Of a stretch of DNA of 64,000 nucleotides, positions 18,297 to 55,600 are shown piece after piece. The notes under the pieces are model-generated. The model did not search any database, was not told the DNA's origin, and was given only the letters and a program-made list of their open reading frames with translations. This DNA is from a virus. How positions within the stretch are numbered: the stretch's first letter is position 1; every line of letters begins with the position of its first letter. The translations under genes were made by a program, and so were the position numbers. The DNA lies in the UHGV virus genome UHGV-1351772. The stretch is one strand, 5' to 3'.

Positions 18297-18367
18297 AATT
18301 CACTCCTAAAGAATGTCTCACGTAGATAATATCTGTCTGACTTCTTTTTGAAATTGAGGTAGTAAGA

Positions 18368-18832: not shown

Positions 18833-19508
18833 ATAAAGCGGCATCTCGTGGGTCGACACCGACCCACTCTGCCATAAACCGGATATGTTCCTTAAACGGG
18901 TTAACCCCGTCTTGTTTGATTTGTTCAACCAATTCCCCGGTCAGTTCTGGTGTGAGCATGGCAGGGTGTGTGATGGTAAAGCTCGGAATCGGTTTTTTCA
19001 AGTGCGTAGCATTAAGCTTAATCCACTCGAACCAATCGTACATTATCCAGCAATCCCACGCCAACGACAATCTCCCCGGTGTGAGATCTTCTAACGACCA
19101 AGACACTAATTCAACTTGTACGTTATTGTAGTACATCCGAAACAGATTCAAAAAGGCTTGAAGTTCTTCGCCCGTTAAATCCGTATAAGGCCACGTATTG
19201 ATGGTCAGAGTGGGTTTTTCAATTGGCGAATGCATTTCGATTTCAAGCAACATACACTCGAATTCGTTTTTCATTGTTGCCAATAATTCAGTAGGCTGCG
19301 CATTAATCAACGCGCGCTTATCCCGCTTCCGCCACACTTCATCCCATTTTTCAAATCCAAGTACGCCAGCCCAAGCTTCTGTATAGCGACGACGATAAAC
19401 GTCGTAGTCTAGCAATGTTAAGCTTTCAGGCTTAACGGCTTTTACCCAACCTAAACGCGTATCAAATAACGTATCAATATCGATTAAGAAACGCCGAGAT
19501 AATCTCAT
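18786..19508 (-). CDS. Hypothetical protein
   Basis: 240-aa ORF; 3' end overlaps the convergent acidic-protein gene. Confidence 0.45.
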   Translation of the reverse strand: MRLSRRFLIDIDTLFDTRLGWVKAVKPESLTLLDYDVYRRRYTEAWAGVLGFEKWDEVWRKRDKRALINAQPTELLATMKNEFECMLLEIEMHSPIEKPTLTINTWPYTDLTGEELQAFLNLFRMYYNNVQVELVSWSLEDLTPGRLSLAWDCWIMYDWFEWIKLNATHLKKPIPSFTITHPAMLTPELTGELVEQIKQDGVNPFKEHIRFMAEWVGVDPRDAALFSLARPAQDVQTPPS

Positions 19509-20173
19509 GACGGATGGCCTATGTTGTTACCGATATGCATCGCTTTTAGGTACGCCGACCACGTACGCGTTGCTTTAGAACTCGTTCGCTCCGCCCCAGG
19601 CAAATCAATACGCCCTTTACCGGTTTGGCGTAGCGACTGATAGAAAGCACGTTGTAATGCGTCGTTACCACCACGCGCCCACAAGAACTCTTTCAGCGTC
19701 CAGTCGTGACCATCGGAATACATGATGTATGCTTCTGGGAAGGACACCCCAGATGCTTTGGAAGGACCAACGACTTGACCGGAGAGCTTATCGCGGACTT
19801 TGTCGTTTTTCGCAACCGCCATTTTCTTTTCTTGCATCTGTGTCTGACGACGGACAGGCAAGCGTAAGACTAAGTGAGGGTAACGAGTACGGTGATAGAC
19901 ACCCGTTTTTGGTTCTGTTAACCAGAGTCGTTGCTCCAGGTTTACCCCGAGAATTTTGCACACCTCGATATTGCGCAGGTGGTCAATTTCGACTTTACTT
20001 CCCACCGGGTTGTAAATAGGTAAACCGTTACGAAGTCGATTAAACTGTTCGTCGGTCATTCGTGCGAAGGCTTTCTTCGCGGCTTCAGCATTAATGCCAG
20101 AAGGGTCTACCAACTTTAAGATTTGTAAGGCGTAGGCTTCCGCCTTTTTACGCCGTGCTGGTTCGAGTTTCAT
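19505..20173 (-). CDS. Hypothetical protein
   Basis: 222-aa ORF. Confidence 0.45.
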   Translation of the reverse strand: MKLEPARRKKAEAYALQILKLVDPSGINAEAAKKAFARMTDEQFNRLRNGLPIYNPVGSKVEIDHLRNIEVCKILGVNLEQRLWLTEPKTGVYHRTRYPHLVLRLPVRRQTQMQEKKMAVAKNDKVRDKLSGQVVGPSKASGVSFPEAYIMYSDGHDWTLKEFLWARGGNDALQRAFYQSLRQTGKGRIDLPGAERTSSKATRTWSAYLKAMHIGNNIGHPS

Positions 20174-27412: not shown

Positions 27413-27448
27413 TTTAATAACTCCAATGGTGTTACACCTGGATAATAT

Positions 27449-28117
27449 CTATCTAAGAATATTTTTAGCGAAAAAAGGATCGACTGTAAACTCCCTCACC
27501 TGTGAGTCATAACCCGAATGTATCTGATCGCTACTGAGCAAATACCCGTCTAAATCGTGTGGAAGAATCCAAGAATCGCCTTGTTTAAAAATACCATAAT
27601 CTGTTGTTCCAGAGGAAAAAACGATTTCCTCTGGAGACGAATAGATGTGGCGTAAGGCAAGATCTGACGGCTTTAACACGATTAATCGAACGGGATGTTG
27701 ACTGACTGCCTCTTTAATAAACTGTTCACGATTAAACCAAATTATTTTTTCGGGGTAAGTTTCGAATTCAGCCCATGTCCGCGTGATAACTAATTTGGAA
27801 ATCTTTCTCAATTCTTCAGAATGCTCTGCGTAGCCGATACACTCCTTGCGCACTTCATGATTTTCTACCGATGCTGTGAATTTTTGGAATAGGTGTTGTT
27901 GGAAAAAGCCGTTCTCCGGGATATCACAACCCGCGTTGTATAGTGCAATGATCTCCCACAACAACGAAAGAGAAAACACAAATGCTAACTTTTCCACAAC
28001 TTCCCAATCTTCGGAGTAAGGGGCTTTAAAGCCCCAATACTGCCGTGCGTTATACATAAAGTGAGTTTGTAAAAACCGAGGGGCTTTTGACAAGACCTCA
28101 CTATAAACGATCAGCAT
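27449..28117 (-). CDS. Hypothetical protein
   Basis: 222-aa ORF. Confidence 0.45.
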   Translation of the reverse strand: MLIVYSEVLSKAPRFLQTHFMYNARQYWGFKAPYSEDWEVVEKLAFVFSLSLLWEIIALYNAGCDIPENGFFQQHLFQKFTASVENHEVRKECIGYAEHSEELRKISKLVITRTWAEFETYPEKIIWFNREQFIKEAVSQHPVRLIVLKPSDLALRHIYSSPEEIVFSSGTTDYGIFKQGDSWILPHDLDGYLLSSDQIHSGYDSQVREFTVDPFFAKNILR

Positions 28118-35628: not shown

Positions 35629-35632
35629 GGGA

Positions 35633-36864: not shown

Positions 36865-36937
36865 TTCCGTATTCCGTAAGACGAAATGACGGCGCGGACA
36901 GCTAATACTCCTTTGTTGTGTGCCCTAATGATAATAT

Positions 36938-37498
36938 CTATTTAAAAGAGTTTGGAATTAATGACTCTGCTTCTTGATACAACTTATCAGGTAAGTATAA
37001 CGTGTAGCGTTGCCTCCTCGGTTCAAGTTTTTTGTAAAGCCACAAAAAGATTTCTTGTCTTTCCCAGGAATCTAACCACCCGTTTGCCATTCCAAGTGGA
37101 GGGATAGCAACGCTGGTATCCAGATCCTCAGCACAATCCGCCAGTGCGGTAATGCCCGCAGTAACATAAGAAACCTGGGACTTTAAGCGCCAATGGGTTT
37201 TCGTGGGGAGCAAGATACACTTTTCGTCAGAGTAAACGTAAACGTTTCCAATCTTAATTTCGTTTTCACGACACCGCTTACGATAATTCTGGTAAAGGTT
37301 GGGGTAGCGTTCACGACACGCGAGTGCAATGCCGCGACCCATCGCTCCTACGCAGTTAATGGTAACGACTTTATAGTCTTCGGGCGCATTAAAAAGATCG
37401 TTATCAATTTCAGATTCTTTACGTACCGTTAACATAACGAAACGCCCGGAGTTGATGTGTAGTATTAAAACGTGTACCGCCGATTGATAGCTCGACAA
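36938..37498 (-). CDS. Macro domain protein (TARG1/OARD1-like, Macro_2 type)
   Basis: DLFNAPEDYKVVTINCVGAMGRGIALACRERYP and VAIPPLGMANGWLD fit the TARG1-like macro-domain pattern; ORF-finder start is TTG, a more likely ATG is at about 37435. Confidence 0.5.
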   Translation of the reverse strand: MSSYQSAVHVLILHINSGRFVMLTVRKESEIDNDLFNAPEDYKVVTINCVGAMGRGIALACRERYPNLYQNYRKRCRENEIKIGNVYVYSDEKCILLPTKTHWRLKSQVSYVTAGITALADCAEDLDTSVAIPPLGMANGWLDSWERQEIFLWLYKKLEPRRQRYTLYLPDKLYQEAESLIPNSFK

Positions 37499-38609: not shown

Positions 38610-38635
38610 ACCTTAGAGACGCAAAAAAAGTAAAA

Positions 38636-38764: not shown

Positions 38765-38821
38765 TTTCTGCTCCTGTCAATACCCTCACACCGGAGGGTA
38801 TCTTCTGGATTATCTGGGTGG

Positions 38822-38920: not shown

Positions 38921-38930
38921 ATTCCCTCTC

Positions 38931-39116
38931 CTAATTCCGCCATTCGCATTCGCGTTGACGCCAAATTGAACCCCACGATAGTTTAATCAGATAAGATGAA
39001 ACTACCCATAAAATCATCACCACACAAAACATGACATAAAGAACCGCTAGAATGGACATGAAGCCAAACCCTGCCGCATCCACAATATGACGGAACCAAT
39101 CAGTTTGCATAAACAA
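38931..39116 (-). CDS. Small membrane protein (61 aa)
   Basis: Hydrophobic core FGFMSILAVLYVMFCVVMILWVV; start overlaps the stop of the SbcC-like gene. Confidence 0.35.
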   Translation of the reverse strand: MFMQTDWFRHIVDAAGFGFMSILAVLYVMFCVVMILWVVSSYLIKLSWGSIWRQRECEWRN

Positions 39117-41604: not shown

Positions 41605-41630
41605 ACCCACCTCCATAAAGACGGAGTGTG

Positions 41631-41676
41631 GTGTAAAAAGAAAAAAATAAAGAAAGGGAGAACCCGAAGGTTCTCC
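41631..41676 (-). terminator. Intrinsic terminator (leftward)
   Basis: Stem GGGAGAACC / GGTTCTCCC, loop CGAA; long T-run on the minus strand. Confidence 0.7.
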
Positions 41677-41682
41677 CAAACG

Positions 41683-42291: not shown

Positions 42292-42310
42292 CTGGTCTTT
42301 CCTTTTAGAT

Positions 42311-42339
42311 CAAAAAAAGAAGCCCCGAGTAAACGGGGC
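42311..42339 (-). terminator. Intrinsic terminator (leftward)
   Basis: Stem GCCCCG / CGGGGC; T-run on the minus strand. Confidence 0.6.
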
Positions 42340-42347
42340 CGGGCTAA

Positions 42348-42824
42348 TTACAGCCCTAAGTGCGTGAGTGATAAAATAGGTTGTGTTTCACCTTTAATCG
42401 TCGCGAAGGAACGATACATTTCTGCGTTACTTGAAAAAACTTCGTTAGCAACGATACATTCACCCGTCTCTAAAGAAAGGAGATAAATGTAGTCGCTCCA
42501 TACGCTTTGTACCAATACCCACTCAAGTGCGGTGTCATTTTCGCGTGTTGTTCGCAGGTGATGAAAGTAAGGACGGATCGCATCAACTGCCGCATTAAAA
42601 CGACGGTGATAAATTCGGGTTAAATCAAAGGTCCAGATTGTTTCCAGGTCGACTGGATGTAGTGTGCGCACCGTTTCGATAATTGTCGACTGATCGTTAA
42701 GGCGCGAGGCTTCGGCGATACGCAGCAGTTTCCAGGCCACCGTTAAGTTGTGGCGAATTTGTTCAGGTTTAGCCGACAGGTCATGATGAAATTGCGCAGC
42801 TTGGTAAACGTTAGATAATTGCAT
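42348..42824 (-). CDS. Hypothetical protein
   Basis: 158-aa ORF. Confidence 0.45.
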   Translation of the reverse strand: MQLSNVYQAAQFHHDLSAKPEQIRHNLTVAWKLLRIAEASRLNDQSTIIETVRTLHPVDLETIWTFDLTRIYHRRFNAAVDAIRPYFHHLRTTRENDTALEWVLVQSVWSDYIYLLSLETGECIVANEVFSSNAEMYRSFATIKGETQPILSLTHLGL

Positions 42825-42850
42825 TTTAATACTCCTTTAGGTAAACATGT

Positions 42851-42880
42851 CGTAAAAAGGACCCCGGACGTACCGGGGTC
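42851..42880 (-). terminator. Intrinsic terminator (leftward)
   Basis: Stem GACCCCGG / CCGGGGTC; T-run on the minus strand. Confidence 0.6.
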
Positions 42881-42890
42881 AAGACTACAC

Positions 42891-43280
42891 TCAATGATCT
42901 AATTCAATAGCACCAGCCATCTTGCCCCGTTCTTCGATAACAATCAGATAACGGTCGCGAGATTTGCTTTTAGCGAGAGTTAAGACAACAGTAGGGTCGC
43001 ATGTTTTCGTGGTGATAGGAAGAACCTCTCTTTCGACGGAATCGAGCAGAAAGTAATAACCTGCGGGACACATTGTGCCACCGTCAGCTTTTACCAGAAT
43101 ATAGCGCCCGTCTGCGCCGACTTCTTGGCAGATTGTTTCACCGACTTCGCAAACTTCAAACCCCGGAGGATTGTACTGATAATCGGTATTGTTGTTTGGG
43201 GTTAGCAGTAAATCGTTAACTTGAGTAGATGCTGCTACACTCAGGGAGAAGAAGAATGCTAAAACGCAGACGAGACGCAT
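42891..43280 (-). CDS. Small secreted Cys-containing protein (signal peptide), member of tandem cluster
   Basis: 129 aa; signal peptide MRLVCVLAFFFSLSVAAS; pattern C.E.G..CQ...RY...GG..C shared with 43291-43701. Confidence 0.5.
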   Translation of the reverse strand: MRLVCVLAFFFSLSVAASTQVNDLLLTPNNNTDYQYNPPGFEVCEVGETICQEVGADGRYILVKADGGTMCPAGYYFLLDSVEREVLPITTKTCDPTVVLTLAKSKSRDRYLIVIEERGKMAGAIELDH

Positions 43281-43290
43281 GAGTTACTCC

Positions 43291-43701
43291 TTAAATTTTA
43301 AGTTTATCCATAGCTACAACGATAGGTTTTTCCGAAGTGTCTAATATCCCTACCATTGGCACACCATCTACGACTTCGAAGAATGGTTTGTTATTACCAG
43401 AGCATAGACGTTTGTCGTTGTATTCGAGACGTTGGGCCTTCCACGTTTCGAGGTTGAGTACAGACATTGGGCTGTCGTAGCACCAGGCACCACCTTGCTC
43501 AACGATGAATACGTATCTGCTACCTTTGTATTTAAACAGACTCTTCGCCTGACAGTACAACCCGTCAATTTCCGTACAATAGAAATCATCGGTGCTATTG
43601 ACGTACTTAATATTGTCTGGCAACTGTATTGTCTTTGCTGTAGCGTTGACAGAGAACAGAACAGCCATTGCAATGAGAAGAGTATTAATGATAGTTTTCA
43701 T
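43291..43701 (-). CDS. Small secreted Cys-containing protein (signal peptide), member of tandem cluster
   Basis: 136 aa; signal peptide MKTIINTLLIAMAVLFSVNATA. Confidence 0.5.
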   Translation of the reverse strand: MKTIINTLLIAMAVLFSVNATAKTIQLPDNIKYVNSTDDFYCTEIDGLYCQAKSLFKYKGSRYVFIVEQGGAWCYDSPMSVLNLETWKAQRLEYNDKRLCSGNNKPFFEVVDGVPMVGILDTSEKPIVVAMDKLKI

Positions 43702-43712
43702 GATAAAAGTCC

Positions 43713-44198
43713 TTAGTATTTAGATTGTTCTACGTACTTCTTAACCAGGTAAGCGAATTCGGCAACACCGATATCACCGAACCAAATCAGGTAACCGGGG
43801 TCGATGTTGTAGTAATAACCGACGAGTTTCTTGGTGTGTGGGTTGTATAGCGTTACGATGTATTCCCAACCACAAGCGTTAGCTTTACAACCACCGCTTT
43901 CAATCCAGATTTTGTTGTTGATGTTTACCGGATACATGTTACCGCCAGGGCCATCCATGTAACCTTTAGAGCCGAACATACCATCCAGTCCCACAGGGTC
44001 TAGTGTTTTATCAACAACGGCTTTAAACGACTTATCGGTATCGTACAAGTCGTTGATGTTTGGGCACGCATTTGGCTGACCTTCCCAAGCGTTTCCATCA
44101 CAGGTAAGCAATTCGTCTGCGGAGGCCGCATCTACAGTTGGTGTGACACCGATAAACAAGAAAACCAGAAAGAACATCAGTGCATGTAAACGTTTCAT
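43713..44198 (-). CDS. Small secreted protein (signal peptide), member of tandem cluster
   Basis: 161 aa; signal peptide MKRLHALMFFLVFLFIGVTPTVDA. Confidence 0.5.
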   Translation of the reverse strand: MKRLHALMFFLVFLFIGVTPTVDAASADELLTCDGNAWEGQPNACPNINDLYDTDKSFKAVVDKTLDPVGLDGMFGSKGYMDGPGGNMYPVNINNKIWIESGGCKANACGWEYIVTLYNPHTKKLVGYYYNIDPGYLIWFGDIGVAEFAYLVKKYVEQSKY

Positions 44199-44216
44199 TG
44201 TAACTACTCCTTTAGA

Positions 44217-44609
44217 TTATTCAGCAGGGCGATTCAAGGTAACACGTCCGATTAATTCGGCGTTGTGAAAGAAGTCCACAGCGGTATAGTTACCAACGGA
44301 TAGCGGATGGATACTAACTGACATTACTTTTGGTTGTTCGCAGGCGATATCCGTCAGACGTTGGTAGACTTGCGCACGGGTGTCAGCAATGAGTAACCCC
44401 GTACACGCTTCACCACGCACTAAACGATAAACTTGCAGTTTACCGAAACTGCGCATTAACGTAGGCGTCTCATCCGGGTTGATAATCGGTGAGTCAGGAG
44501 CCGGTTCGTAATAGCGGACATCCGAATCACCGAAAGCATAAGTGCCAGTAATTCCGACCGCACAGAAAATAATGATGGTATAAAGTATAGTTCTGATATT
44601 CATTTTCAC
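44217..44609 (-). CDS. Small secreted protein (signal peptide), member of tandem cluster
   Basis: 130 aa; signal peptide MKMNIRTILYTIIIFCAVGITGTYA. Confidence 0.5.
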   Translation of the reverse strand: MKMNIRTILYTIIIFCAVGITGTYAFGDSDVRYYEPAPDSPIINPDETPTLMRSFGKLQVYRLVRGEACTGLLIADTRAQVYQRLTDIACEQPKVMSVSIHPLSVGNYTAVDFFHNAELIGRVTLNRPAE

Positions 44610-44631
44610 GCACTCTAAAAAAGATTAATAG

Positions 44632-45093
44632 TTATTTGTTAGGACGGGTGTGTCCACAGTTCTGGAAGAAAGTTTCAGACAGACGTTCGCCTTCTACGGT
44701 AAAGTTAGCGGTGTCGTTACCATTGATACTCACACTGAAAGTTTTGGCATTACCGATAGCATTAACGAAAGCAACCCAAGCGTGTTCTGCTTTGTCACTA
44801 CCGTCCACGGTAGGGATGTTATAGGTCTTGCCGTTTACGACAATATCCAACGTGTTATCTTCCGCGTTAGTTGCACCTACGGGTTCACCGTAATACCAAA
44901 CCATGTGACCGTAAAATTTGCGATTCGCAGTTTCTGTGTCACAGTTGATAGACAGTCCGTTTCCGGCGGTGTCTTCAATTTCGTAAACTGCCTGGCCAGG
45001 GTTTTGTATTTGTTCCCAGCTGTTGATAGCGGCGTGTGCGCTATTGAGGCCGAAAGTTAAAATGGTTATTAAGAAAGTGATAAAGGTTTTCAT
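44632..45093 (-). CDS. Small secreted protein (signal peptide), member of tandem cluster
   Basis: 153 aa; signal peptide MKTFITFLITILTFGLNSAHA. Confidence 0.5.
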   Translation of the reverse strand: MKTFITFLITILTFGLNSAHAAINSWEQIQNPGQAVYEIEDTAGNGLSINCDTETANRKFYGHMVWYYGEPVGATNAEDNTLDIVVNGKTYNIPTVDGSDKAEHAWVAFVNAIGNAKTFSVSINGNDTANFTVEGERLSETFFQNCGHTRPNK

Positions 45094-45139
45094 TGAAATG
45101 CTCCTTCGGGTTATGGGGAAATTCCCACAAATTATGAAA

Positions 45140-45511
45140 TTAAATAACTGTGTTGGGTAATGCTTTAATCTGTGTATAACTATCTCCGATACCTCTTATC
45201 ATTTCCAGACGCTCTTCTGTAGAAAGGCTTTGGTTAATGTCTTTGTCAAGATTGAACAGTGTCAAGAGTTTTGCAATTGCAACCGTCAAGTTGTCGGACA
45301 GCTCGTTGTTTTTACGCCATTCTTCGTTACGGAAAATAGAGATAAGGTCTTTCGCCTGGCCTTCAGCGTGCGGTTTGGCTAACTGCGCGTCACGCTGTTC
45401 GATAAGGTATGCTTCGTTAGTAAGTAAACGTTTCAGGTTTTCTGGGTTAGTGGCAGCGCGAGTAACGATCATTAATACAACAAACGGGTCTTTAAATAAT
45501 TCGTTTTTCAT
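45140..45511 (-). CDS. Hypothetical protein
   Basis: 123-aa ORF, first gene of the operon that contains the secreted-protein cluster. Confidence 0.45.
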   Translation of the reverse strand: MKNELFKDPFVVLMIVTRAATNPENLKRLLTNEAYLIEQRDAQLAKPHAEGQAKDLISIFRNEEWRKNNELSDNLTVAIAKLLTLFNLDKDINQSLSTEERLEMIRGIGDSYTQIKALPNTVI

Positions 45512-45541
45512 CTTTAGTTCTCCTAAAATGGTTTTCGTTAA

Positions 45542-45585
45542 GTGAGAGCTTTTGTACTCTCACCTAAGTAATATATATCTGAAAT
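45542..45585 (+). promoter_or_regulatory. Conserved hairpin + 22-bp AT-rich motif (copy A), candidate phage-specific promoter/regulatory element
   Basis: Hairpin GTGAGAG-CTTTTGTA-CTCTCAC followed by CTAAGTAATATATATCTGAAAT; 20 of 22 positions identical to copy B at 49851-49872. Confidence 0.4.
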
Positions 45586-45603
45586 TATTTTTAATAATAA
45601 CGA

Positions 45604-45636
45604 ACAAAAAATAAAAGGTGGGGGTAAACCCCCACC
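45604..45636 (-). terminator. Intrinsic terminator (leftward)
   Basis: Stem GGTGGGGGT / ACCCCCACC, loop AA; T-run on the minus strand. Confidence 0.7.
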
Positions 45637-45640
45637 GATG

Positions 45641-46219
45641 TTATACATCGAACCGGTACTGCCGGGAGTTAATGAGGAACTCGGTATTCAGCTCAATCCA
45701 TTCGAGTAAATCGCCCAACGGTAATCGGTTTGGGTTTTCTAACTCAATAGACGCTACCGGATAAGAGTTTACTAATTCCGTAATTGCCTCAATACCCTCT
45801 TGCGTTCCATCGTCTTCTAAGGTGATTGTAAACGGCATATCGGTACGATCCGCATTAGGATTGTACAAACTGACTTTCGTTGCTTGGACAAACGCAGTCA
45901 GGTCGTCACGTATAATGCGTGTATCAGGCGCTAGAACTACCCAGAGATGTTGTCCAGGCTGGAGTTTACGTTTTGCGTAGTTTAAGAACGGATTAGCCGG
46001 TAAGCTTTCCAAACCACTGCAAATGTTCCGTAAATGAATACCTCGTGGGTCTTTATAGTCCACGCTGAAGATTCCTACCGGTTCCTTCGCTGCCTGTTTT
46101 ATCAGAAAGACCAATACCGTGTCCGCTCTTTCTGGTAAGGAAAGCTCTATTCCCTCAAGCTCCCCATCGACGAGGTTTTCCAACCAAACGTCTTTTCGCA
46201 TTTCTATTAATCGGTACAC
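45641..46219 (-). CDS. Hypothetical protein
   Basis: 192-aa ORF. Confidence 0.45.
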   Translation of the reverse strand: MYRLIEMRKDVWLENLVDGELEGIELSLPERADTVLVFLIKQAAKEPVGIFSVDYKDPRGIHLRNICSGLESLPANPFLNYAKRKLQPGQHLWVVLAPDTRIIRDDLTAFVQATKVSLYNPNADRTDMPFTITLEDDGTQEGIEAITELVNSYPVASIELENPNRLPLGDLLEWIELNTEFLINSRQYRFDV

Positions 46220-46231
46220 GGTACCACCTCA

Positions 46232-47005
46232 CTATTGATTAAGTTTTACATCGGCAATAAACAGCAATTGTTTACCATGTTGCTGCACTTCTTTCCAACC
46301 CAGTTTCATAGCAGCGTCAACAACATCTAACATGCTGTAACGGGACATCAACGCGGTTGATTTTGTTCCTGACATTAAATAAAGTGGCTCATTAGGGCAA
46401 CGGTCTCGAGCATCAGGAAGTTCTCGAATAACCACTGAGCCTTCGGGTACGGTAACAACATGAATCACGGTAAATGGTCTCTTGTGTGTTAAGTAGATAC
46501 GGAACCCAACGTGTTCAGATTCATGAAAGATTTTCTTCACGACCACATCTTTCAGTGTCGTCTGAACATCAGCCCCAGGTAATATCGTGGTTTCACGTGA
46601 AACGAAGCAACGACTATTTTCAATCGTGGAGAAATAATTACGTATCGGCAAACTGGCGTTATGATCGCGCAGTTTTTTGCTCAGTAGATCGAAGTTCAGT
46701 TCTTTAACTTTTTCTAACCACTCTTTGGCTTGTTGAATGTAATAACTACCGACAGCGCGATAAGTTAATACCTTACCTGTGCTCACTTGCCAAAGCTTGA
46801 TGCTTAGTGAATTTGGCTTATAGCGACGATACTCACCCCGCGTATGGTTGATGCGCTCGTAACGCTCTACATCATCAACGGGTGCAGATTCGACCGATTG
46901 TAATTGCAGCGTACGATCTAATCTATCGGCAAATAGTAGTGATGTTAGCGAACCTTCGATCATATACGGTTCGGTTTTAAAGATATCGTCTAAATGGACT
47001 TTCAT
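46232..47005 (-). CDS. Member of tandem paralog family with conserved C-terminal module
   Basis: 257 aa; C-terminus AAMKLGWKEVQQHGKQLLFIADV; N-terminus MKVHLDDIF resembles that of 48841-49578. Confidence 0.5.
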   Translation of the reverse strand: MKVHLDDIFKTEPYMIEGSLTSLLFADRLDRTLQLQSVESAPVDDVERYERINHTRGEYRRYKPNSLSIKLWQVSTGKVLTYRAVGSYYIQQAKEWLEKVKELNFDLLSKKLRDHNASLPIRNYFSTIENSRCFVSRETTILPGADVQTTLKDVVVKKIFHESEHVGFRIYLTHKRPFTVIHVVTVPEGSVVIRELPDARDRCPNEPLYLMSGTKSTALMSRYSMLDVVDAAMKLGWKEVQQHGKQLLFIADVKLNQ

Positions 47006-47027
47006 TTCTATTTCCTTCTTAACAAAA

Positions 47028-47050
47028 GCCGCGACTAAAGCGCGGCAGTT
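47028..47050 (-). terminator. Possible intrinsic terminator (leftward, weak T-tract)
   Basis: Stem GCCGCG / CGCGGC, loop ACTAAA. Confidence 0.35.
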
Positions 47051-47072
47051 AGAGAAAGTGTAGTTTCACTTA

Positions 47073-48224
47073 TTAAATGTTGGCAACAAACAACAGTTGG
47101 CTGCCGTATTTTTGCACGTCAGCCCAACCGTAGTCTTTCCCGATTATAGGTAGATGTAAAGCATCCAGCTTCTCGTCTTTCGCCTTCAGTTTCGCCACTA
47201 ACGCATTGGACTCCTCAGCACCGAGCAGTAATGCGGGTTCTTTTTCAGTACGTCCTTCTGCGGTCGGGAAGAAATCGTAATAGCTGCGAGTAGGTAAATC
47301 GACAGAAAAACTACGATTGCCTATTGTGATGAAGAACGCAACTCCTTCACAGTTAACATCTACACTACACGACCACCCCGCCTCTGTTAAAAGGTCTTTT
47401 AACAGACACCACACTTTAAGTTGGTTCTTAGAAAGTGTACGGTAGATAGCAAGATGGTCAGGAAGTAAATGCACCGCCATAATCATGTTTTCACATTTCT
47501 CGTCAAGCAACCTTGGATGTTGAATCGGGAACAATAATTCACTGATACCCACGTTATCAATTTTGTTAACAAAATCAGTTAATTCATCTTTTAAGGTACG
47601 CACGGATTTTTCTCCTTCGACTTCAATAATCTGGTGGGGTTCGCCGCTAATTAAAATGTGGTAAACGATGTCGTCGGTAGAACGGTAAGTGAGTTTGATA
47701 GCTTTATCACTTAACATTTCGTAGCGGAAGAAACTTTCGTACCAAGTTGACCCGAAATCGTTTCGTGTAAGTTCCTGCTCAACTTTGATGGTTTTTGCTT
47801 CAAAGCCGATTAACCCGCTTAATAACGCGAGTTCTGGTTTAGTTAAAATGCCCGCACCGTGAAAGGGCACTTTCTCAAGCTGAAAACATAAATTACTGAC
47901 TTTACCACTTGGGAAGACCTTAAACATAATCTTCCGGCTGCTACTCTTTTCCCTAACAACGAGTTTACGGTAATTTAGTCCACAATTTGTGTAAACCGCG
48001 AACTTGTAACCTTCAATTTCTTCATCGTAAGTACAGACATCGACAGGTGCGATAATCTCATTGTATTCAGTAAGTACACAGCAGCCCAAGTTATAACCAA
48101 ACAACTCACGTTGTAATGAAGACTCGATGGTTAAGCTTGGTAGTGACCAAACCCGATTATAGCATCTGTCCATCAGTTCTTTTAGGATCTTGGCATGTCC
48201 TGGTTTAGAAATAATATTACGCAT
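47073..48224 (-). CDS. Member of tandem paralog family with conserved C-terminal module
   Basis: 383 aa; C-terminus IIGKDYGWADVQKYGSQLLFVANI. Confidence 0.5.
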   Translation of the reverse strand: MRNIISKPGHAKILKELMDRCYNRVWSLPSLTIESSLQRELFGYNLGCCVLTEYNEIIAPVDVCTYDEEIEGYKFAVYTNCGLNYRKLVVREKSSSRKIMFKVFPSGKVSNLCFQLEKVPFHGAGILTKPELALLSGLIGFEAKTIKVEQELTRNDFGSTWYESFFRYEMLSDKAIKLTYRSTDDIVYHILISGEPHQIIEVEGEKSVRTLKDELTDFVNKIDNVGISELLFPIQHPRLLDEKCENMIMAVHLLPDHLAIYRTLSKNQLKVWCLLKDLLTEAGWSCSVDVNCEGVAFFITIGNRSFSVDLPTRSYYDFFPTAEGRTEKEPALLLGAEESNALVAKLKAKDEKLDALHLPIIGKDYGWADVQKYGSQLLFVANI

Positions 48225-48254
48225 TTTTACTCTCCTTTAGTGTTTTTTCGTTAC

Positions 48255-48809
48255 TTAAGCAGGGTAAGCTAAGAACAACAGCTGCTGGCCGATTTTACGT
48301 ACGGTATACCAACCGTGGGCTTTAGCGACCGCGATCAACGTTTCCCAGTCGTCAACATCGCACTGTTCATTCCGAAGTCTTGTAAAGAGTGCCTCGGCTT
48401 CGCTTTGGTTTAATAACTTACCTGGGTTGTCTGGGGTGCAGTCAGTAGGGGTTGGAAAGAAAGTATACTGACGCGCTAGGAGAAAATCGACCAGATACTT
48501 GGTATTTTCTTTATAAACCAGCGTGGAAGACTTTCCTTCGTGGAAGAAGCTGCCTGTTTTCCAAGCGCTATCCCCCAGTAAGCTCTGAAGGTAATCTGTA
48601 AAGCCCGTTCTGAAAGGGATATGGTTTTTACGTGTGATGTTACGACGCAGCGGGGTTTCCTCTACAGCTTGTACACTTACCCCTACTATCATCGCACCTG
48701 GCTGAATAATGCTATTGGTCAGTACGGTATAAGGACGGACAAAGAAATGTTCGCCTACGCCCTTTTCAAGGGTTTGGATAATTTCATTTTTCAGTTCAGT
48801 TTGAAACAT
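48255..48809 (-). CDS. Member of tandem paralog family with conserved C-terminal module
   Basis: 184 aa; C-terminus VAKAHGWYTVRKIGQQLLFLAYPA. Confidence 0.5.
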   Translation of the reverse strand: MFQTELKNEIIQTLEKGVGEHFFVRPYTVLTNSIIQPGAMIVGVSVQAVEETPLRRNITRKNHIPFRTGFTDYLQSLLGDSAWKTGSFFHEGKSSTLVYKENTKYLVDFLLARQYTFFPTPTDCTPDNPGKLLNQSEAEALFTRLRNEQCDVDDWETLIAVAKAHGWYTVRKIGQQLLFLAYPA

Positions 48810-48840
48810 GGTATATTCTCCTTTTTTTCGGTTTTCTTAA

Positions 48841-49578
48841 TTACGCAGTTTTAATTAACAGCAGATAGTCCTTCGTAATCTCAGCACAACTCCACCCTCT
48901 CATCGTGGCGATTTTACGAAGATCAATTTTCTCGTGATATTTCAATAAGGGATCGTCCGGGTTAATTTCAACCAGGTGTGTGGCTTTAGAAATCGTTTCC
49001 ACATCTGGGATCTGTTTTGCTAAGTCGGATGCAATCAGTTCAATAACGCGGTATCCCTTTAACACAGAAACATAGATGCGCAAGCCATATAGCGTGCCCT
49101 CGTCTTCTAATGGACAAAGATCGATGCCGGGTCCAAGCAGTGATAACTCGACGTTATCGGGAAGGTTTTCTGCATTTCGGAGTAACCCTATCCCATTTCT
49201 AAACAGAGGGAAGTAAGAGAATAGTGGTGGTAAAGGCCAACCGTTCCCAATAAGCACATCATCGATACTAGTAGGCGTGTTCGCAAGAAGACGAATGTGG
49301 TCAGCCACAACTTCAAGTTCGGCATCACTGATCAACTTATAGATTAACATGACGCTGGTTTCGGTATTAAAAACAAAGAAGACGCGGTTGGCGTAACTAC
49401 CTATCACGTATTCGTCAATCAAGCAGTCGATAACGTCACTGTCTGGATAATCTTCAGGTTTAATTGTTCCAGCATCGATTAACTTAGCAGGTTGCGATTG
49501 TTTTATTAGTTCGTTAACCACCGTAGAAGAAAGTTCTAAACTGGTATTGGTAAAGATATCGTCTAATAATTCTCTCAT
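48841..49578 (-). CDS. Member of tandem paralog family (divergent C-terminal module), first gene of leftward block
   Basis: 245 aa; N-terminus MRELLDDIF; C-terminus IATMRGWSCAEITKDYLLLIKTA. Confidence 0.5.
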   Translation of the reverse strand: MRELLDDIFTNTSLELSSTVVNELIKQSQPAKLIDAGTIKPEDYPDSDVIDCLIDEYVIGSYANRVFFVFNTETSVMLIYKLISDAELEVVADHIRLLANTPTSIDDVLIGNGWPLPPLFSYFPLFRNGIGLLRNAENLPDNVELSLLGPGIDLCPLEDEGTLYGLRIYVSVLKGYRVIELIASDLAKQIPDVETISKATHLVEINPDDPLLKYHEKIDLRKIATMRGWSCAEITKDYLLLIKTA

Positions 49579-49672
49579 GATTTACTCGCTAATCCCAATG
49601 AAGGGAAGGCTATTATTATGGATTGTAAAAGAGGTATAAGGAAGTCACTACGTTCCTCTGGGAAGAGTATGT

Positions 49673-49712
49673 CGGTATACTCCGTATACCTCCGCTATTT
49701 ATATCCGTATAC
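49673..49712. promoter_or_regulatory. Three direct repeats of C(C/G)GTATAC in divergent control region (candidate operator)
   Basis: CGGTATAC at 49673-49680, CCGTATAC at 49682-49689 and 49705-49712; each contains the palindrome GTATAC. Confidence 0.35.
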
Positions 49713-49817
49713 ATAATGCCCCTACCCCTACCGGTATCCCGAGTAGCAGAATAAAGGGTCATAATGTAATTTTTTAGTAACCTTTAACGAAAGGTACTAA
49801 AAGGGTAACGTGTCCGT

Positions 49818-49872
49818 AGGGACTGAACTGGTACTTCAGTCCCTATTCACTTAAGTAAAATATATCTGAAAT
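49818..49872 (+). promoter_or_regulatory. Conserved hairpin + 22-bp AT-rich motif (copy B), candidate phage-specific promoter for gene 49898
   Basis: Hairpin AGGGACTGAA-CTGGTAC-TTCAGTCCCT, then TTAAGTAAAATATATCTGAAAT ending about 25 nt before the ATG; AAGGA ribosome-binding site between. Confidence 0.45.
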
Positions 49873-49897
49873 CAATTCCGATCTAAGGAACGTCCCG

Positions 49898-50863
49898 ATG
49901 GAGAAATCCAGTGTTGATTTTTTCTCAATTGGTATCGTCGCGGAAGACAAACCCCGTGGTACAGATCGGGTAAAAGTGATACCAATTGAAACTAACTTTG
50001 CTAACCCTACTGTGGTGCAATCTGTTTCTTCAGCAACTGAAAAGACGCATGAAACATCTGGTGCAACAGATAACCTAACCATTAAGACGGGAAACACGAT
50101 AACGGCAAAGTGGTGGAAGTTTAACTCCAACCGAATTAATTCCCCTGACGTTAAACGAGAAGATTACGTTATCTTGTTACGTTTGGGGAAAACCGATATT
50201 TATTTTTGGATTGATCTGAACTTCGCTAACGTTAAGCGATTAGAAGATGCGGTTTATGCGTGGTCGGCTGACCCTGAAAACCAAATGGCGGATGACTTGT
50301 CCAATGCGTATGTGTTGAACGTTTCGACGATTGACAAACATATCACGCTAAGAACAAGTATGGTGAACGGTGAGAAAGCGGCGTGGTTGTTTCAGTTTGA
50401 TAATGCAAACGGTACGTGGCAGTGCGTTGACCATAAAGGAAACAAGTATTACATTAACTCGGTTGAAGATGATCTCGGGTTTGAGAATGCGATGCTTTCA
50501 AAAGTGAACATCAACAAAGAAGATGCGTTCATTTATTCAAAGCGTTCTATTAACCTGGAAACGAAAACGATTAATGAAAAATGCGAAGTCCGCAATACGG
50601 AAGCAGCGAATTCCGTTACGTTTAAAACACAAACCTGGTTAACAGAAGCGGGCAGTTCGACAACGTTTAAAACGCCGAACTTTAAACAAGAAGGGAAGGA
50701 AGCGATGTTCACCGGTAATTTGGAAGTCGCTAAGAACTTCAAATACGGTGGTACGGGTGAGGGTGTGGGTGTCTTTACGGTTAAAGATGCCGTTATTTCC
50801 GGTATTACCTTTAGCGTTCACATTCACCAAGGTAAACATGGCCCGACATCACCTCCGCAGTAA
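49898..50863 (+). CDS. Hypothetical protein, possibly virion structural (beta-rich, repeated TFKT segments)
   Basis: 321-aa ORF; first rightward gene after the control region; C-terminal repeated TFKTQ/TFKTP motifs. Confidence 0.45.
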   Translation: MEKSSVDFFSIGIVAEDKPRGTDRVKVIPIETNFANPTVVQSVSSATEKTHETSGATDNLTIKTGNTITAKWWKFNSNRINSPDVKREDYVILLRLGKTDIYFWIDLNFANVKRLEDAVYAWSADPENQMADDLSNAYVLNVSTIDKHITLRTSMVNGEKAAWLFQFDNANGTWQCVDHKGNKYYINSVEDDLGFENAMLSKVNINKEDAFIYSKRSINLETKTINEKCEVRNTEAANSVTFKTQTWLTEAGSSTTFKTPNFKQEGKEAMFTGNLEVAKNFKYGGTGEGVGVFTVKDAVISGITFSVHIHQGKHGPTSPPQ

Positions 50864-51069
50864 TTCCCCTTTTTCTTACGTTGTTTTTATATATTGTGAC
50901 CTGACGTTGGTAAAGCTTTTTATCAACACTTTTCTTAAACCCATCGTTTAGTTAAGCAGGCCACTTTTTTCGCGCACTCTACTCCTCCCTACGGGGAGGA
51001 GCTATCTTATGCTTCGGTTGTAACACACGTCGGTCTTAGACCACCTTCCTTTTGAAATGGAGAGCTGTT

Positions 51070-51279
51070 ATGTCTATTAAAGAGTTCTCTTCTGCTGAGC
51101 ATATTCCAGAAGAGTTTAAGAAAATCGGTAACGTTAGCGCTTTCGGCGACACCGTTGATCATGTAACGGGTAAGCTGGCTGCTGAAGCTGAAAAAATTGG
51201 CGGCGACGCATTCAAAGTTATCGGTATTTCCGGCAACAACAAACTGCACGGTAACGCAATTGTCTACAAAAAAGACTAA
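51070..51279 (+). CDS. DUF1471 (YdgH/BhsA/McbA-family) domain protein lacking a signal peptide
   Basis: Start placed at MSIKEF (GGAGAG upstream); IGNVSAFGDTVDHVTGKLAAEAEKIGGDAFKVIGISGNNKLHGNAIVYK matches the DUF1471 core; own upstream hairpin and strong downstream terminator. Confidence 0.55.
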   Translation: MSIKEFSSAEHIPEEFKKIGNVSAFGDTVDHVTGKLAAEAEKIGGDAFKVIGISGNNKLHGNAIVYKKD

Positions 51280-51280
51280 G

Positions 51281-51340
51281 CGAAAAAAAAACGTGCTACT
51301 CCTACCCTCTTAGAGGGTAGGAGGTTACTTTATTTTTTTC
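51281..51340. terminator. Bidirectional intrinsic terminator
   Basis: 11-bp stem CTCCTACCCTC / GAGGGTAGGAG with 3-nt loop, flanked by A-run and T-run. Confidence 0.75.
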
Positions 51341-52592
51341 GTGCTCTAAAGCGATGCATTTCTAAATACACTTTTTCCCAGGGACCGAATGGACCGACGA
51401 TTGCTTGCGCGTCGTTAATCTTCTTCTGATTATACCACCGGGCTTCACGAAAGACGTAGTTTTGACTGTCGAACTCCGTGGTGTTAAATACCCACTCACC
51501 CTCCTCCCATGTAGGCCAATAGCCCACCGTCTTTCCGAAGCGATTATTTAAGTACCCTAATGGTTTTTCAGAATCAGGATCGCTAGGGTCCTTGAGATAA
51601 CAACGTCCCCAAACTGCGTTATGTGATACACCCACAACCTCTTCTTCTAAATACGGATTATCTACCGTAAAGATAAACGAAGACTCGTGGAGTAAAAGCG
51701 CCTTTAATGTTTCGGGGTTGCGAATACGTTGGACATTAGTAGGTGTTGATAAATCCCCCACACCGATGGCGTCCCAGTCGTAATAGCGACGGGTTTCCAG
51801 AACGGTCCGTGCAAGATCAAAATTCGGTAAAGAAATCATGATCGCACGGTCGGAGAAATAACCGCCAGGAGGCAACCAACGTAATAGTCCACCGATGACG
51901 AAACCCACCGTTTTTCCCGTGATAGATTCGGGCAGCGAAATCATTAACGTAGAGTAATAGTCGCGTGTAGTGTCGAGCTTGTTTAGGGTAAGGTTGGCAA
52001 TGGGGTAAGTTTTAACATTCCCTAACTGACCAAAAACCATACAGCCGATATCTGGCGTACAGGCTCTTCGTACGATTTTACCGGCCCCGGGTAATCGGAC
52101 ACCTACGGTATCTGTCTGGTGCGGTACCCATTGACCGTTAATGTTGTACAGTACACTATTACGGTATTTGTCCTTCCACTTGTCCTCACAAACGATGACA
52201 ACGTCATCAGCATCGTCTAAGCTGAAATCTTGACTGTGGTGGTACCCAGGCGGACACAGATATGTTTCAACGGGTACGTCAGCATTAATCGATTGGTAAT
52301 GTGCCCAACTGAATTCGAGTTTCGGCAATCCGGCTTTTAGAGTAGGGATGACGTTTCCGGCTTTTTCATTTAACCAATCTTGTAAAGTGTCTGTTCGGTT
52401 TTGTAGTTCGGCAAGATGGTATTGGCTGACTAACGTATAGTCTTTACCAAGTGCACTTAAACCGATCTCAAAGGTGTGGTAGTCTGAACACAACGTATTT
52501 AAGGGTTGCGTGACATCGATGGCTCCCCAGGTACGGGACTCTCGAGAGAAGCCAAAAGCGCTGTCGGGCCGCACTTGATAAGCAGTAGTCAC
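51330..52592 (-). CDS. Hypothetical protein (leftward gene inside rightward late block)
   Basis: 420-aa ORF, convergent with the DUF1471 gene and divergent from the first tail-fibre gene. Confidence 0.5.
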   Translation of the reverse strand: MTTAYQVRPDSAFGFSRESRTWGAIDVTQPLNTLCSDYHTFEIGLSALGKDYTLVSQYHLAELQNRTDTLQDWLNEKAGNVIPTLKAGLPKLEFSWAHYQSINADVPVETYLCPPGYHHSQDFSLDDADDVVIVCEDKWKDKYRNSVLYNINGQWVPHQTDTVGVRLPGAGKIVRRACTPDIGCMVFGQLGNVKTYPIANLTLNKLDTTRDYYSTLMISLPESITGKTVGFVIGGLLRWLPPGGYFSDRAIMISLPNFDLARTVLETRRYYDWDAIGVGDLSTPTNVQRIRNPETLKALLLHESSFIFTVDNPYLEEEVVGVSHNAVWGRCYLKDPSDPDSEKPLGYLNNRFGKTVGYWPTWEEGEWVFNTTEFDSQNYVFREARWYNQKKINDAQAIVGPFGPWEKVYLEMHRFRARKK

Positions 52593-52660
52593 AGCTCTTT
52601 TCCTCTATAGATTCAAGTCATAGTATGAACTTCGACGCCCACGGACTATAGGAGTAGAGA

Positions 52661-55600
52661 ATGGCTGTCGTCCTAGACCCACACTTCAAAAAACCGGGGA
52701 ATAAAATAACCGGTGAAGCGGTCGCCGTCATTGGTACGAAATACCGAATGTTGGTACCTGCCCACGCCCCTTTTTTCACCACATCCCTGGTGGTCAAGAG
52801 CGGCGGCAAAATACTGACCTTAGGCGACGATTACGTTATTACACACCCGTACGAGACCGGTATGTTGCGCACAGCCTATCTCATTCACGGGATGATTTGG
52901 ATTGTTAATGACAAATACAAATCGAATTTTACGGTAGATTACCACGCCGTTGGTTGTGGTCAGGCTACCCAACAACAGATTACCGCAGAACGCGAACTCA
53001 ATAAAGATAAATACCCGTCTGCGTGTCAGTGGGACACCGTCATCGGGGACGTTTACTTTCCGCCGGTCGATATTCAGTTCGATTGGGAGAATTGGAAAGG
53101 TGAACTGGAATTAATGCAGGCTATTGCTGGATTAGGCGATTCGTTAGGGGAAGTCGTGAGTCGGCTTAACCCCATCGCACGCAATACCCTGGATTTAGAA
53201 TACCGTGCTAATAGCAAGGTTATCACTTCCGAGCAGTATGCCGTATACGACAATAAAGGTGGCTTCACCTACAACACTGCCCGTCATCGTTATAGCTTGA
53301 GTTATAAAACTGCAACCTTTAACGACTACGCCCTGTCAGTGAAACACAGAATTCCTGCTATTCTGCCAGACATGACGAAATTGAATCCAAACGAACAGAT
53401 CGATTGGATGCTCTGTTATGCTAACGGCGGTGCAAGTATTCTACGGCTGCAGCTAAAACAGCGCAAAATCTCACTGGTCTTAACGGTCGCTATTGGTAGC
53501 GGTTCAACAAACTACGATTATACGTTAATCAACGGTTTAACTGACGATGAGTTAAAAAACGATATCGATTTTAGTGTAACCCGTCAACCCGGAAACGGTG
53601 TTTACGTCATCGTAGTAAAAACAAATAAACAGACCATGGATTACACATTCAACGTCGATACACCGCCTGATGAGTTCTCGGCAGGGTATTCGAAAACGGA
53701 TGTTGCTAAATGGTTGAAGTTTAAAACGAACATTAATTTAAACTGGTATGCGGCCGAAAACGATTATATCCAAATTCGTTCTTTACCCGGCGCACCAGAA
53801 CCTGACGTCGATAACGATGTTTACCAGTTAATAGTTAAATATCATCAGTTAGTTGAGCAGCTGTATCGTAACGCGCCTGCACACGAACACGTTACACGTA
53901 AGGACAACCCGCACACCGATACGTGGGGTCCGATCCGTGCGTTAGAGCTGAATGGTATTGCGTCGGATGCCGCGTTAGCTTACGGGAAAACGAAACAACA
54001 GTTAACGGATTACGTTAATGCTAAGTACCCAACACAAGCAACGTTAACCGCACAGAAAAAATTGCTTCGTGAATCGGCGAGCAAGAACGTTAACGGCACG
54101 ATTACCACACTTCCGGGTTTTACTTCGTTCACGACGGAAGTTGATCCGGTTTCGATGTCGAAATACGTGAGTCCTTATTTTAGCGAAAGCTATGTTAGTA
54201 GTGGACACAGATATCACGGTGCGCTTCGTTACACAGGAACGAAAAACGGTTTCAGTGCTAACTTTAATGCGGTGCCTGCCAACCTGCAAGATATTGACTT
54301 TATTGTTACTGGACGTAAGACAGCATCCGGTAATGAAGCGGTCGGTAGGGTTGGTTTACGTTTCTACGAAAACCCGGGTAGTAACTCCGGTAAGTTCGTA
54401 GAGATTACTGGCCAAATCTGGGGTGGTACCCTTACTATCAGTCTGACATTGAACGGTTACGGGAGTCCGTTACCGTCAGTACGTTATATTTCTCAAGCTC
54501 CTAATCCGGCAATACCGGATGGGGATTTTACGCTACGTTTTCAACTGAAGCGTACAGGGAACGTGTTTAACGTCGTTATTACCGTAAACGGTAAAACGTA
54601 TAGCGGTCGGATTAACTTCGATAACATGGACGCTGCGTTAGAAGCATTAGAGAATCAGCACCACTTTAAATCGCTGATCAATAATGTTGCTGACGCCGTC
54701 ACTATTAGTTCGCAAAACAAAGGTAACACGGTTACCATTAAGAAAGCACCGGATGTTGTTGATGGGGTTCGCTTAGGTGCCCAGTTTGTCGTTGATCCGA
54801 AATCCATTAAGTTTATTGGCCAAGGTTCAACTGATGTTAACGTAGGAAATAACCCCGTAACGTTCCAAGCAGGTACTAACCAGCTTATGTTGTATCCTGA
54901 TGATCGTGGGTTACAGTGGCGTGGTAAAAAACTCTTAGACCCCACCACCGTGGCCCCGTATCTACCAGGCAATACCGCAGGTGGCACAGGTTTATTCTAC
55001 GCAAGTTCGACAACAACGGTTACGATCACCGGTAGCGGGATAAAAGCCTCGCCGTTCGTAGCGACCTTTATTCTTCCTACCGCGACCGATACAACAGCTC
55101 TGGCAGCTTGGCAGTTGACCGATGAGTTCGGTACCGCTGAAAACCTTGCAGCAACGCCAGCACTGATTGAAAAACTCGATGCGGAGTTCACCGGTAAGTT
55201 AGTTGCAGTTAAATCGTACATTAACGACATGCAACTTACCAGCTCGGTTACTATCGATAAGATTACCTTTGGTTTAGGTAATGTTGCGAATACGCCCGAT
55301 GCCGATTTACCGATTTCTACAGCACAGCGTGCGGAGTTAGATAAATACTCGCCTAAAGTTCACCAACACCCGTTTACCGCTTTTGGTACTGGGAACGCAA
55401 CCACAGCGCAACGTGGTCTGATTAAATTTGGTCTGGATGTGGATGATGCGACTTTAGCACTCGATGGGAGTGTGGTAATGGCGCAGACTTCTCAGATTGA
55501 AAAATTGGAGCGCGCTGTCAGCGGTGTTGACTCGGAGGCACGTCTTGACATTATACGTTTTGGTGAGTCTGGTAACGACTTAATAGACCTTACGGTCAAA

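Follow-up and report, generated by a model that had tools for sequence, protein, structure and literature searches.

A repeated composite element was analyzed in the virus genome UHGV-1351772, of which a stretch of 64,000 nucleotides was available (hereafter the window). Its two copies, A and B, lie between positions 45,542 and 49,872, and each combines an inverted repeat with an AT-rich 22-mer. Both copies are most likely early promoters of the type used by phiKZ-like jumbo phages, directed leftward, and judged from its letters the element has every sequence-level feature of a phiKZ-family early promoter. It carries a conserved motif on the minus strand, it lies upstream of leftward genes, and it is coupled to a covarying hairpin whose position is locked to that of the predicted transcription start. 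The initial annotation had read the element on the opposite strand, as a rightward promoter preceded by a hairpin.

In copy A, the inverted repeat GTGAGAG/CTCTCAC (45542-45563, loop CTTTTGTA) is followed by the 22-mer CTAAGTAATATATATCTGAAAT (45564-45585). In copy B, an 11-bp inverted repeat (49817-49845, loop CTGGTAC) and a 5-nt spacer are followed by the 22-mer TTAAGTAAAATATATCTGAAAT (49851-49872), which ends 25 nt before an ATG at 49898. Identity between the two 22-mers extends to 20 of the 22 positions, and no match with three or fewer mismatches was found in 100 shuffles of the window. Both hairpins exceeded dinucleotide shuffles in stability, with plus-strand z scores of -2.9 (A) and -3.7 (B). 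The pairing of two near-identical 22-mers with stable hairpins, from which the initial annotation had started, is thus borne out. Read on the minus strand, copy A is AAAAATAATTTCAGATATATATTAC-TTAGGT-G.

This minus-strand reading was compared with early-promoter consensus sequences published for jumbo phages. The N1M2 consensus is TBYAWWWWWTTTCARRYAKATATTATYWAAGTGWA and that of OBP is nearly the same (OBP/N1M2 core TTTCARRYAKATATTATYWAAGTG), while those of 201phi2-1 and phiKZ are ..TTTRARR_BTATATTACDWHDGTG and TATATTAC, respectively (PMC7058600). The AR9 early promoter reads AAATATATATTAT-(6N)-G+1, and transcripts of phiKZ and phiR1-37 also start 6 nt past the core (PMC5312081). Mapping studies and reviews place this motif, centred near -10, in early promoters and presume that the virion polymerase reads them (PMC7598289, PMC8244752, PMC11512511). 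Among the TATATTAC sites in the initial 50 kb of the phiKZ genome, G is the seventh base after C in 7/7, and tttaaacag precedes TATATTAC. Predicted starts given here follow the AR9/phiKZ rule, with +1 placed 6 nt past the core.

A degenerate consensus search of the window returned five sites, all on the minus strand. With a weight matrix built from related phages only, leaving the window out, exactly five sites were again obtained, all on the minus strand and scoring 22.7-52.7 bits, against 2.0 bits for the next best position and a maximum of 6.4 bits in the shuffled window. Each of the five is followed, after 20-90 nt, by the start codon of a leftward gene. Shorter patterns were uninformative: exact TATATTAC alone had one match in the window versus 2.4 expected, and a loose 17-mer pattern with two mismatches was at chance level there (15 versus 18.5), so that the real sites are separated only by the longer consensus or the weight matrix. 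An AT-rich extended -10-like core is present at all five sites (ATATATTAC in copy A, ATATTTTAC in copy B and AGATATTAT in the other three), and a G is conserved 6 nt past the core in 5/5. Two sub-consensus forms can be told apart, class 1 (TTTCAGATATATATTACYTAGGTG), to which copies A and B belong, and class 2 (AGATAGATATTATCTNNGTG), which comprises the other three sites; upstream of class-1 cores the consensus is ATTAAAAATnATTTC, which contains a T-rich/TTT element and an A/T tract. The copy A promoter matches exactly the class-1 pattern derived from IMG/VR and agrees with the published consensus sequences.

Judged from its proteins and gene order, the window belongs to a new SPN3US-like, phiKZ-related jumbo phage. 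The 723-aa protein encoded at 6089-8260 has 63-64% identity with the corresponding proteins of SPN3US and phiEaH2, and synteny of the window with SPN3US, in inverted orientation, covers approximately 145 to 212 kb of that genome. When 44000-51000 was compared by megablast with 50,697 GenBank phages, the element alone was matched (45541-45611, ca. 90% identity in the Erwinia jumbo phages phiEaH2, Stratton and Asesino, 91% in phiEaH2). A more sensitive search with 45520-45640 extended the matches to 76 phage records, nearly all from SPN3US-like jumbo phages and each matched at 4-6 places. Together with the five sites in the window, this agrees with the expectation of the initial annotation that the motif would recur in the genome and be conserved in relatives. 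An exact IMG/VR scan for the class-1 21-mer gave 38 matches, all in ca. 13 jumbo-phage contigs of 107-246 kb, and the 21-mer of copy B was found unchanged at the syntenic site of three IMG/VR phages. Identity of 96.5% over window positions 41152-55089 was recorded both for the relative L046 and for IMGVR_UViG_3300029126_000001.

The orientation of the element follows from its strand and from the genes that it precedes. In SPN3US, 26 of 29 matches are on the main coding strand, and each of the 15 matches with no more than two mismatches is followed within 150 nt by an annotated gene of the same orientation; moreover, 7/7 SPN3US sites of the ATATATTAC type lie between co-directional genes, so that all of them would be antisense in the orientation of the initial annotation. 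The class-2 sites of SPN3US number about 15. The three class-2 sites of the window have SPN3US orthologues at 191602 (upstream of gp045, for site 18319), 184044 (site 27435) and 174954 (site 36924). The rightward model holds that the element is a promoter dependent on a phage factor and provided with an N4-like upstream hairpin; the late baseplate gene would be transcribed from copy B, and an antisense or small RNA from copy A. Such a role would account for the 25 nt that separate copy B from the ATG at 49898 and for the lack of a late-type TATG upstream of that gene, though its relatives have one; hairpin promoters are also known from the N4 virion polymerase (PMC4496689). However, the published consensus is matched on the minus strand only, the five window sites and the 15 good SPN3US sites are all co-oriented with the gene downstream, and the baseplate gene of SPN3US, L040 and L041 has no such upstream motif. 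In N4, besides, the hairpin has its centre at -11, before the start, and the polymerase has a single subunit. The minus-strand consensus and the co-orientation of the sites led us to reject the rightward orientation, and a rightward promoter of this kind is barely credible. Copy B matches the early and not the late class, copy A need not be explained by antisense or small-RNA transcription, since it follows a terminator and lies 50 nt upstream of the leftward gene 45140-45511, and the hairpin, which the initial annotation had placed upstream of the promoter, is downstream of the predicted start. A degenerate relative of the element noticed near 18368 proved to be real (18319-18354), as a putative leftward promoter for gene 17748-18296 and not for the rightward gene. 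At 18319-18342, in a divergent intergenic region, the class-2 core is quasi-palindromic (AGACAGATATTATCTACG), and SPN3US 15613/15614 is similar. Bidirectional function there is unlikely, because the rightward reading scores only 2.0 bits.

The machinery that would read the element appears to be encoded by the phage. Phages related to phiKZ have one virion-packaged and one non-virion multisubunit RNA polymerase; a fragment of a split beta subunit is encoded in the window (Table 1), and several RNA polymerase beta-subunit genes are annotated in the syntenic SPN3US genome. The recognition by phage-encoded machinery suggested in the initial annotation is retained here, although not the sigma-like factor that it proposed, a 98-aa open reading frame at 10659-10955 (minus strand) that adjoins the thymidylate synthase gene and has a C-terminal helix-turn-helix (KKLAEIHGVTPSRISQIISKAKRDF). 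Its Pfam matches fall below the cut-offs (HTH_3, 19.7 bits versus 23; Sigma70_r4, 17.0 versus 24.1) and it has no PHROG; its product is therefore regarded as a generic DNA-binding protein and not as a demonstrable sigma fragment. A comparative study found no sigma factor in this phage group (PMC7824862).

Use of the host enzyme was also considered, in the form of a sigma-70 early promoter combined with a stem-loop resembling a terminator, as in the PeSLs of T4-type phages. Hexamers resembling TATATT occur in the AT-rich element, and copy A adjoins a terminator at a mosaic junction, as PeSLs do (PMC4122927). Yet a sigma-70 consensus scan, for -35 and -10 hexamers 16-18 nt apart, had no minus-strand match at either copy (45561-45600 and 49848-49890), in accordance with the earlier remark that a sigma-70-type -35 box is missing, and the positions conserved here, TTTC, TTAC and GTG, differ from those of sigma-70 promoters. 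Phages of this family have, in addition, been reported to infect independently of the host RNA polymerase (PMC7598289, PMC13282480), and the hairpin follows the promoter and lacks a terminator-type U tract. A host promoter of this sort is consequently very improbable.

The two sub-consensus forms differ in what follows the core. To characterize the hairpin, 40 distinct class-1 sites from ca. 13 related phages were examined, taking the conserved final G as +1. A hairpin of -3 kcal/mol or lower begins exactly at the predicted +1 in 26 of the 40 sites and within 3 nt of it in 32, compared with 6% of shuffles having a hairpin at +1 and 66% having none at all. The hairpin is thus part of the composite element, as the initial annotation had supposed. 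Contiguous stems of at least 5 bp starting at +1 to +3 were present at 29/40 class-1 and 8/22 class-2 sites, as against 16% of random genomic positions beginning with GA and 15% of shuffles, and the z score of the leader, measured from GTG, averaged -1.99 for class 1 and +0.23 for class 2. Position is conserved and sequence is not: at least 15 different stem sequences were found among class-1 hairpins, with unconserved loops of 3-11 nt. The stem of copy B retains 11/11 pairs in three distinct orthologues, three pairs being altered on both sides while 5/7 loop bases differ. The GTAC loop emphasized in the initial annotation is a coincidence: orthologues of copy B have the loops CTCGCAC and GTGCGAA, and GTAC occurs within 30 nt at 7/40 sites versus 10% of random controls. 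G.U pairs lengthen the stem at 24/40 sites on the leftward transcript versus 9/40 on the opposite strand, which favours an RNA structure on the sense transcript. Two other roles for the hairpins were rejected. They are not intrinsic terminators, as the terminator scan lists neither hairpin A nor hairpin B and both are devoid of a terminator-type U tract; nor do they form an N4-type hairpin promoter, since they start at predicted +1 to +4 and have unconserved loops.

Beyond the hairpin, class-1 leaders are of uniform length, with the ATG at +47 to +64. A conserved (A)ATCGAC(T/C)AT box lies between hairpin and Shine-Dalgarno sequence (ca. +25 to +45) in 16/40 class-1 and 1/22 class-2 leaders; examples are the SPN3US leaders at 65413, 94239, 113986 and 223277, and the version in copy A is weak (AACGAAAACCATT). 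Small genes of unknown function follow the ATATATTAC-YTAGGTG form with hairpin, both in SPN3US and at window sites 45561 and 49848, and conserved genes, including those for RNA polymerase beta subunits at SPN3US 29014, follow the AGATAGATATTATCT form without hairpin. That one subclass (ATATATTAC plus hairpin, or AGATATTATC) serves as a middle-type promoter for a non-virion polymerase would fit two clearly separable sub-consensus forms with different leader architecture, and early and middle promoters of phiKZ are both AT-rich (PMC8244752). It is nevertheless decidedly unlikely, given that both subclasses share AGATA-N-AT(A/T)TTA-YYT-NN-GTG and fall inside one OBP/N1M2 consensus, and that the middle motif of phiKZ (TACT near -22) looks different.

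Table 1. Features of the window related to the repeated element (starts and promoter functions are predictions)
Feature	Position	Strand	Evidence
Copy A promoter, class 1, TATTAAAAATAATTTCAGATATATATTAC-TTAGGT-G; predicted +1 = G at 45561	45561..45596	-	Weight matrix 52.7 bits; shuffle maximum 6.4
Copy A predicted leader hairpin, RNA +1..+18, GAGAGU-ACAAAA-GCUCUC	45544..45561	-	Leader fold -10.8 kcal/mol, z -3.45
Copy B promoter, class 1 variant ATATTTTAC; predicted +1 = G at 49848	49848..49883	-	Weight matrix 32.0 bits
Copy B predicted leader hairpin, RNA +4..+32, 11-bp stem, 7-nt loop	49817..49845	-	86-nt leader fold -27.8 kcal/mol, z -4.44
Second predicted hairpin of copy B leader	49772..49802	-	Fold
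Class 2 promoter AGACAGATATTATCTACGTG; predicted +1 at 18319, upstream of leftward gene 17748-18296	18319..18354	-	Weight matrix 26.5 bits
Class 2 promoter AGATAGATATTATCCAGGTG; predicted +1 at 27435, upstream of leftward gene 26669-27412	27435..27470	-	Weight matrix 38.7 bits
Class 2 promoter AAATAGATATTATCATTAGG; predicted +1 at 36924, upstream of leftward gene 36139-36864 (transglycosylase-like)	36924..36959	-	Weight matrix 22.7 bits
Split multisubunit RNA polymerase beta subunit fragment	19505..20173	-	phrog_3233 'RNA polymerase beta subunit', E 6e-93
Intrinsic terminator of upstream leftward gene 45641-46219, GGTGGGGGTTTACCCCCACC then TTTTATTTTT	45607..45636	-	Terminator scan (45636-45617)
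First gene of copy A transcript (45140-45511), 123 aa, unknown function, phrog_27024, with Shine-Dalgarno AGGAG at 45520-45524	45140..45524	-	
Conserved leader element downstream of copy B, overlapping 48-aa open reading frame 49616-49762	49600..49745	-	Aligns with syntenic intergenic DNA of SPN3US (161470-161593), L040 and L041

Several observations weigh against the reading of the element as a leftward early promoter with a transcribed hairpin. The 40 class-1 sites include orthologues from the ca. 13 related genomes and are not independent, so that p-values are overstated. The repeat also pairs positions -1 and -2 in 11 of the 26 cases, which a hairpin formed only in RNA from +1 would not require. 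An uncompensated A.A mismatch interrupts hairpin A in the nearest relative, L046 (GCACTC for GCTCTC; L046:9511), and among the phiKZ sites examined a hairpin at +1 was seen in only 2/7, indicating that only this clade and subclass have the coupling. For the rightward baseplate gene at 49898 no promoter was found, no late-type TATG being located within 135 nt upstream (49763-49897), and a rightward role overlapping copy B therefore keeps a small probability. Lastly, no transcript or start-site data for SPN3US-like phages were found in the literature searched, and we infer the exact start site, the early timing and the identity of the polymerase from phiKZ, AR9, phiR1-37 and 201phi2-1. The copy A of L046 additionally reads TTAAGTG for TTAGGTG.

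That the repeat extends to the untranscribed positions -1 and -2 would be expected if, the promoter assignment being right, the hairpin acted in DNA, the repeat at +1 extruding or easing melting for a sigma-less virion polymerase or serving as a recombination site. The cassette does coincide with a recombination junction. On the other hand, the excess of wobble pairs on the sense strand is a better fit to RNA, class-2 and most phiKZ promoters have the same core and no repeat, and stem sequences vary freely. Action at the DNA level was accordingly judged unlikely.

The leftward terminator that had been reported beside copy A was recovered by the terminator scan (45636-45617). In phiEaH2 and Asesino the order is the same as here, with a leftward gene stop, the terminator, an A-rich tract, the motif, the hairpin, a ribosome-binding site and a leftward gene start, and the terminator-promoter layout was also found in L016. 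This relative is 93.5% identical to the window over 35086-45106; homology breaks at 45106-45556 and the same terminator and promoter are present. Hairpin A, its leader and gene 45140-45511 are missing from L016 (2700-2870 versus window 45094-45563), where the identical promoter, followed by a different hairpin, precedes the gene for a signal-peptide protein orthologous to 44632-45093. Conversely, the L036 orthologue of gene 45140-45511 follows a class-1 promoter with a different hairpin, and the hairpin of copy A precedes another gene in L012. No homology was found between the genes behind copy A and those behind the phiEaH2 copy. By these alignments, the putative promoter of copy A is placed exactly at the mosaic junction of a gene insertion or replacement, and this junction suggests that such promoters help drive accessory-gene turnover in jumbo phages. 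Between genes 45140-45511 and 44632-45093, the minus strand of 45094-45139 reads ...TTTGTG-GGAATTTCC-CCATAACCCGAAGGAG, which resembles what is left of a GTG-plus-hairpin leader that has lost its promoter.

Copy B was absent at the syntenic site of SPN3US, L040 and L041 and present only in the nearer relatives L045-L047. In the three former phages, no motif of the copy B type was seen upstream of the baseplate gene. Downstream of copy B, the conserved leader element 49600-49745 consists of a G-rich GGGGTAGGGG tract, then CGGAGGT, a short hairpin with a varying stem and ACCGACAT(A/C)C. The 48-aa open reading frame 49616-49762 that it overlaps has frame-breaking indels among L045-L047; the element is probably non-coding and the open reading frame doubtful. 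No Rfam family reached its gathering score anywhere in the window, and only a chance-level U5 match (E 0.27) was obtained for 49500-49900. A late-type (A/C)TA(G/C)TATG(A/T), like the late TATG of phiKZ, stands before three structural-module genes (22402, plus strand; 52661, plus; 52592, minus). Upstream of the baseplate gene, SPN3US, L040 and L041 have GTA(G/A)TATGA, and L045/L047 have TACTATGA ca. 230 nt upstream.

For the leftward early promoter, the following course of events is proposed. The virion polymerase, injected with the DNA, would recognize on the minus strand an A/T-rich tract, TTTC and the extended -10-like core AGATATAT(A/T)TTAC, and after six bases would start at a G (45561 in copy A, 49848 in copy B), early and without the host polymerase. 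The predicted 5' end is the G located 7 nt after TATATTAC/ATATTAT, the strand reading TTTCAGATAT... Copy A would start a new leftward transcript covering gene 45140-45511 and beyond, and copy B a leftward block made of a structured leader followed by gene 48841-49578. Transcription of the repeat would put a stem-loop at the very 5' terminus of the early mRNA, or no more than 3 nt from it. In E. coli, mRNAs that begin directly with a stem-loop, such as those with the ompA and T7 gene 10 leaders, are stabilized because RppH and 5'-end-dependent RNase E are impeded. It is conceivable, if somewhat short of an even chance, that the hairpin similarly stabilizes the early mRNA against 5'-end-dependent decay by RNase E and RppH. 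A broader and more tentative proposal is that early promoters of the ATATATTAC type are tied to a +1 stem-loop and a uniform leader in a portable terminator-promoter-hairpin-leader box-Shine-Dalgarno cassette. This cassette might give the immediate-early mRNAs of host takeover a special stability or identity, through protection from decay or recognition on leaving the early infection vesicle, and might act as a homology patch for the shuffling of accessory genes between phages, in which case it would be the jumbo-phage equivalent of the PeSLs of T4.

As a result of the analysis, a transcription map with five putative leftward early units, with predicted starts at 49848, 45561, 36924, 27435 and 18319, is proposed for the window, and the spurious reading in terms of antisense RNA and a late promoter is removed from its annotation. 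The problem of promoter recognition by a sigma-less virion polymerase becomes testable in SPN3US and Salmonella through the two sub-consensus forms and their hairpin coupling. Being compact and specific to the phage, the cassette might in addition find use as a signal for gene expression. On the evidence of sequence, the type of promoter is one already known, and the coupling to a +1 hairpin and the cassette-like behaviour appear modestly new. Nothing relevant to hairpins at jumbo-phage early promoters or to the motif of the SPN3US clade was found in the literature searched, which did not extend to Ceyssens 2014, Lavysh 2016 and Cornelissen 2012, any of which may describe either.

The element shares with the early promoters of phiKZ-like phages an AT-rich extended -10-like core, a TTT element ca. 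10 nt upstream and a G 6 nt downstream, as well as the presence of many copies, co-oriented at operon starts, in genomes encoding split multisubunit RNA polymerases. It differs from them in the SPN3US clade by having two sub-consensus forms, of which the ATATATTAC form is coupled to the +1 hairpin and a uniform leader. The leaders of ompA and T7 gene 10 begin with a hairpin that leaves 0-3 nucleotides unpaired at the 5' end, and continue through an unstructured spacer to a Shine-Dalgarno sequence, a layout like that predicted for the copies described here, whose class has, by comparison, mostly short stems (5-9 bp, AU-rich). The PeSLs of T4-type phages are likewise small terminator/promoter cassettes that recur in variable regions, at junctions where accessory genes are swapped (PMC4122927), and copy A stands at such a junction. 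In PeSLs, however, the promoter is of the host sigma-70 type and the stem-loop is the terminator, whereas here the promoter is of a phage-polymerase type and the hairpin lies past the start, separate from the terminator; copy B has no adjacent terminator. With the promoters of the N4 virion RNA polymerase, the element would have in common early use and a polymerase carried in the virion, and it shares with them a short inverted repeat with a variable stem (PMC4496689). The N4 hairpin differs in being centred at -11, on the template DNA strand, and in serving a single-subunit enzyme, while the repeat described here begins at the predicted +1 and would be transcribed by a presumed multisubunit polymerase.

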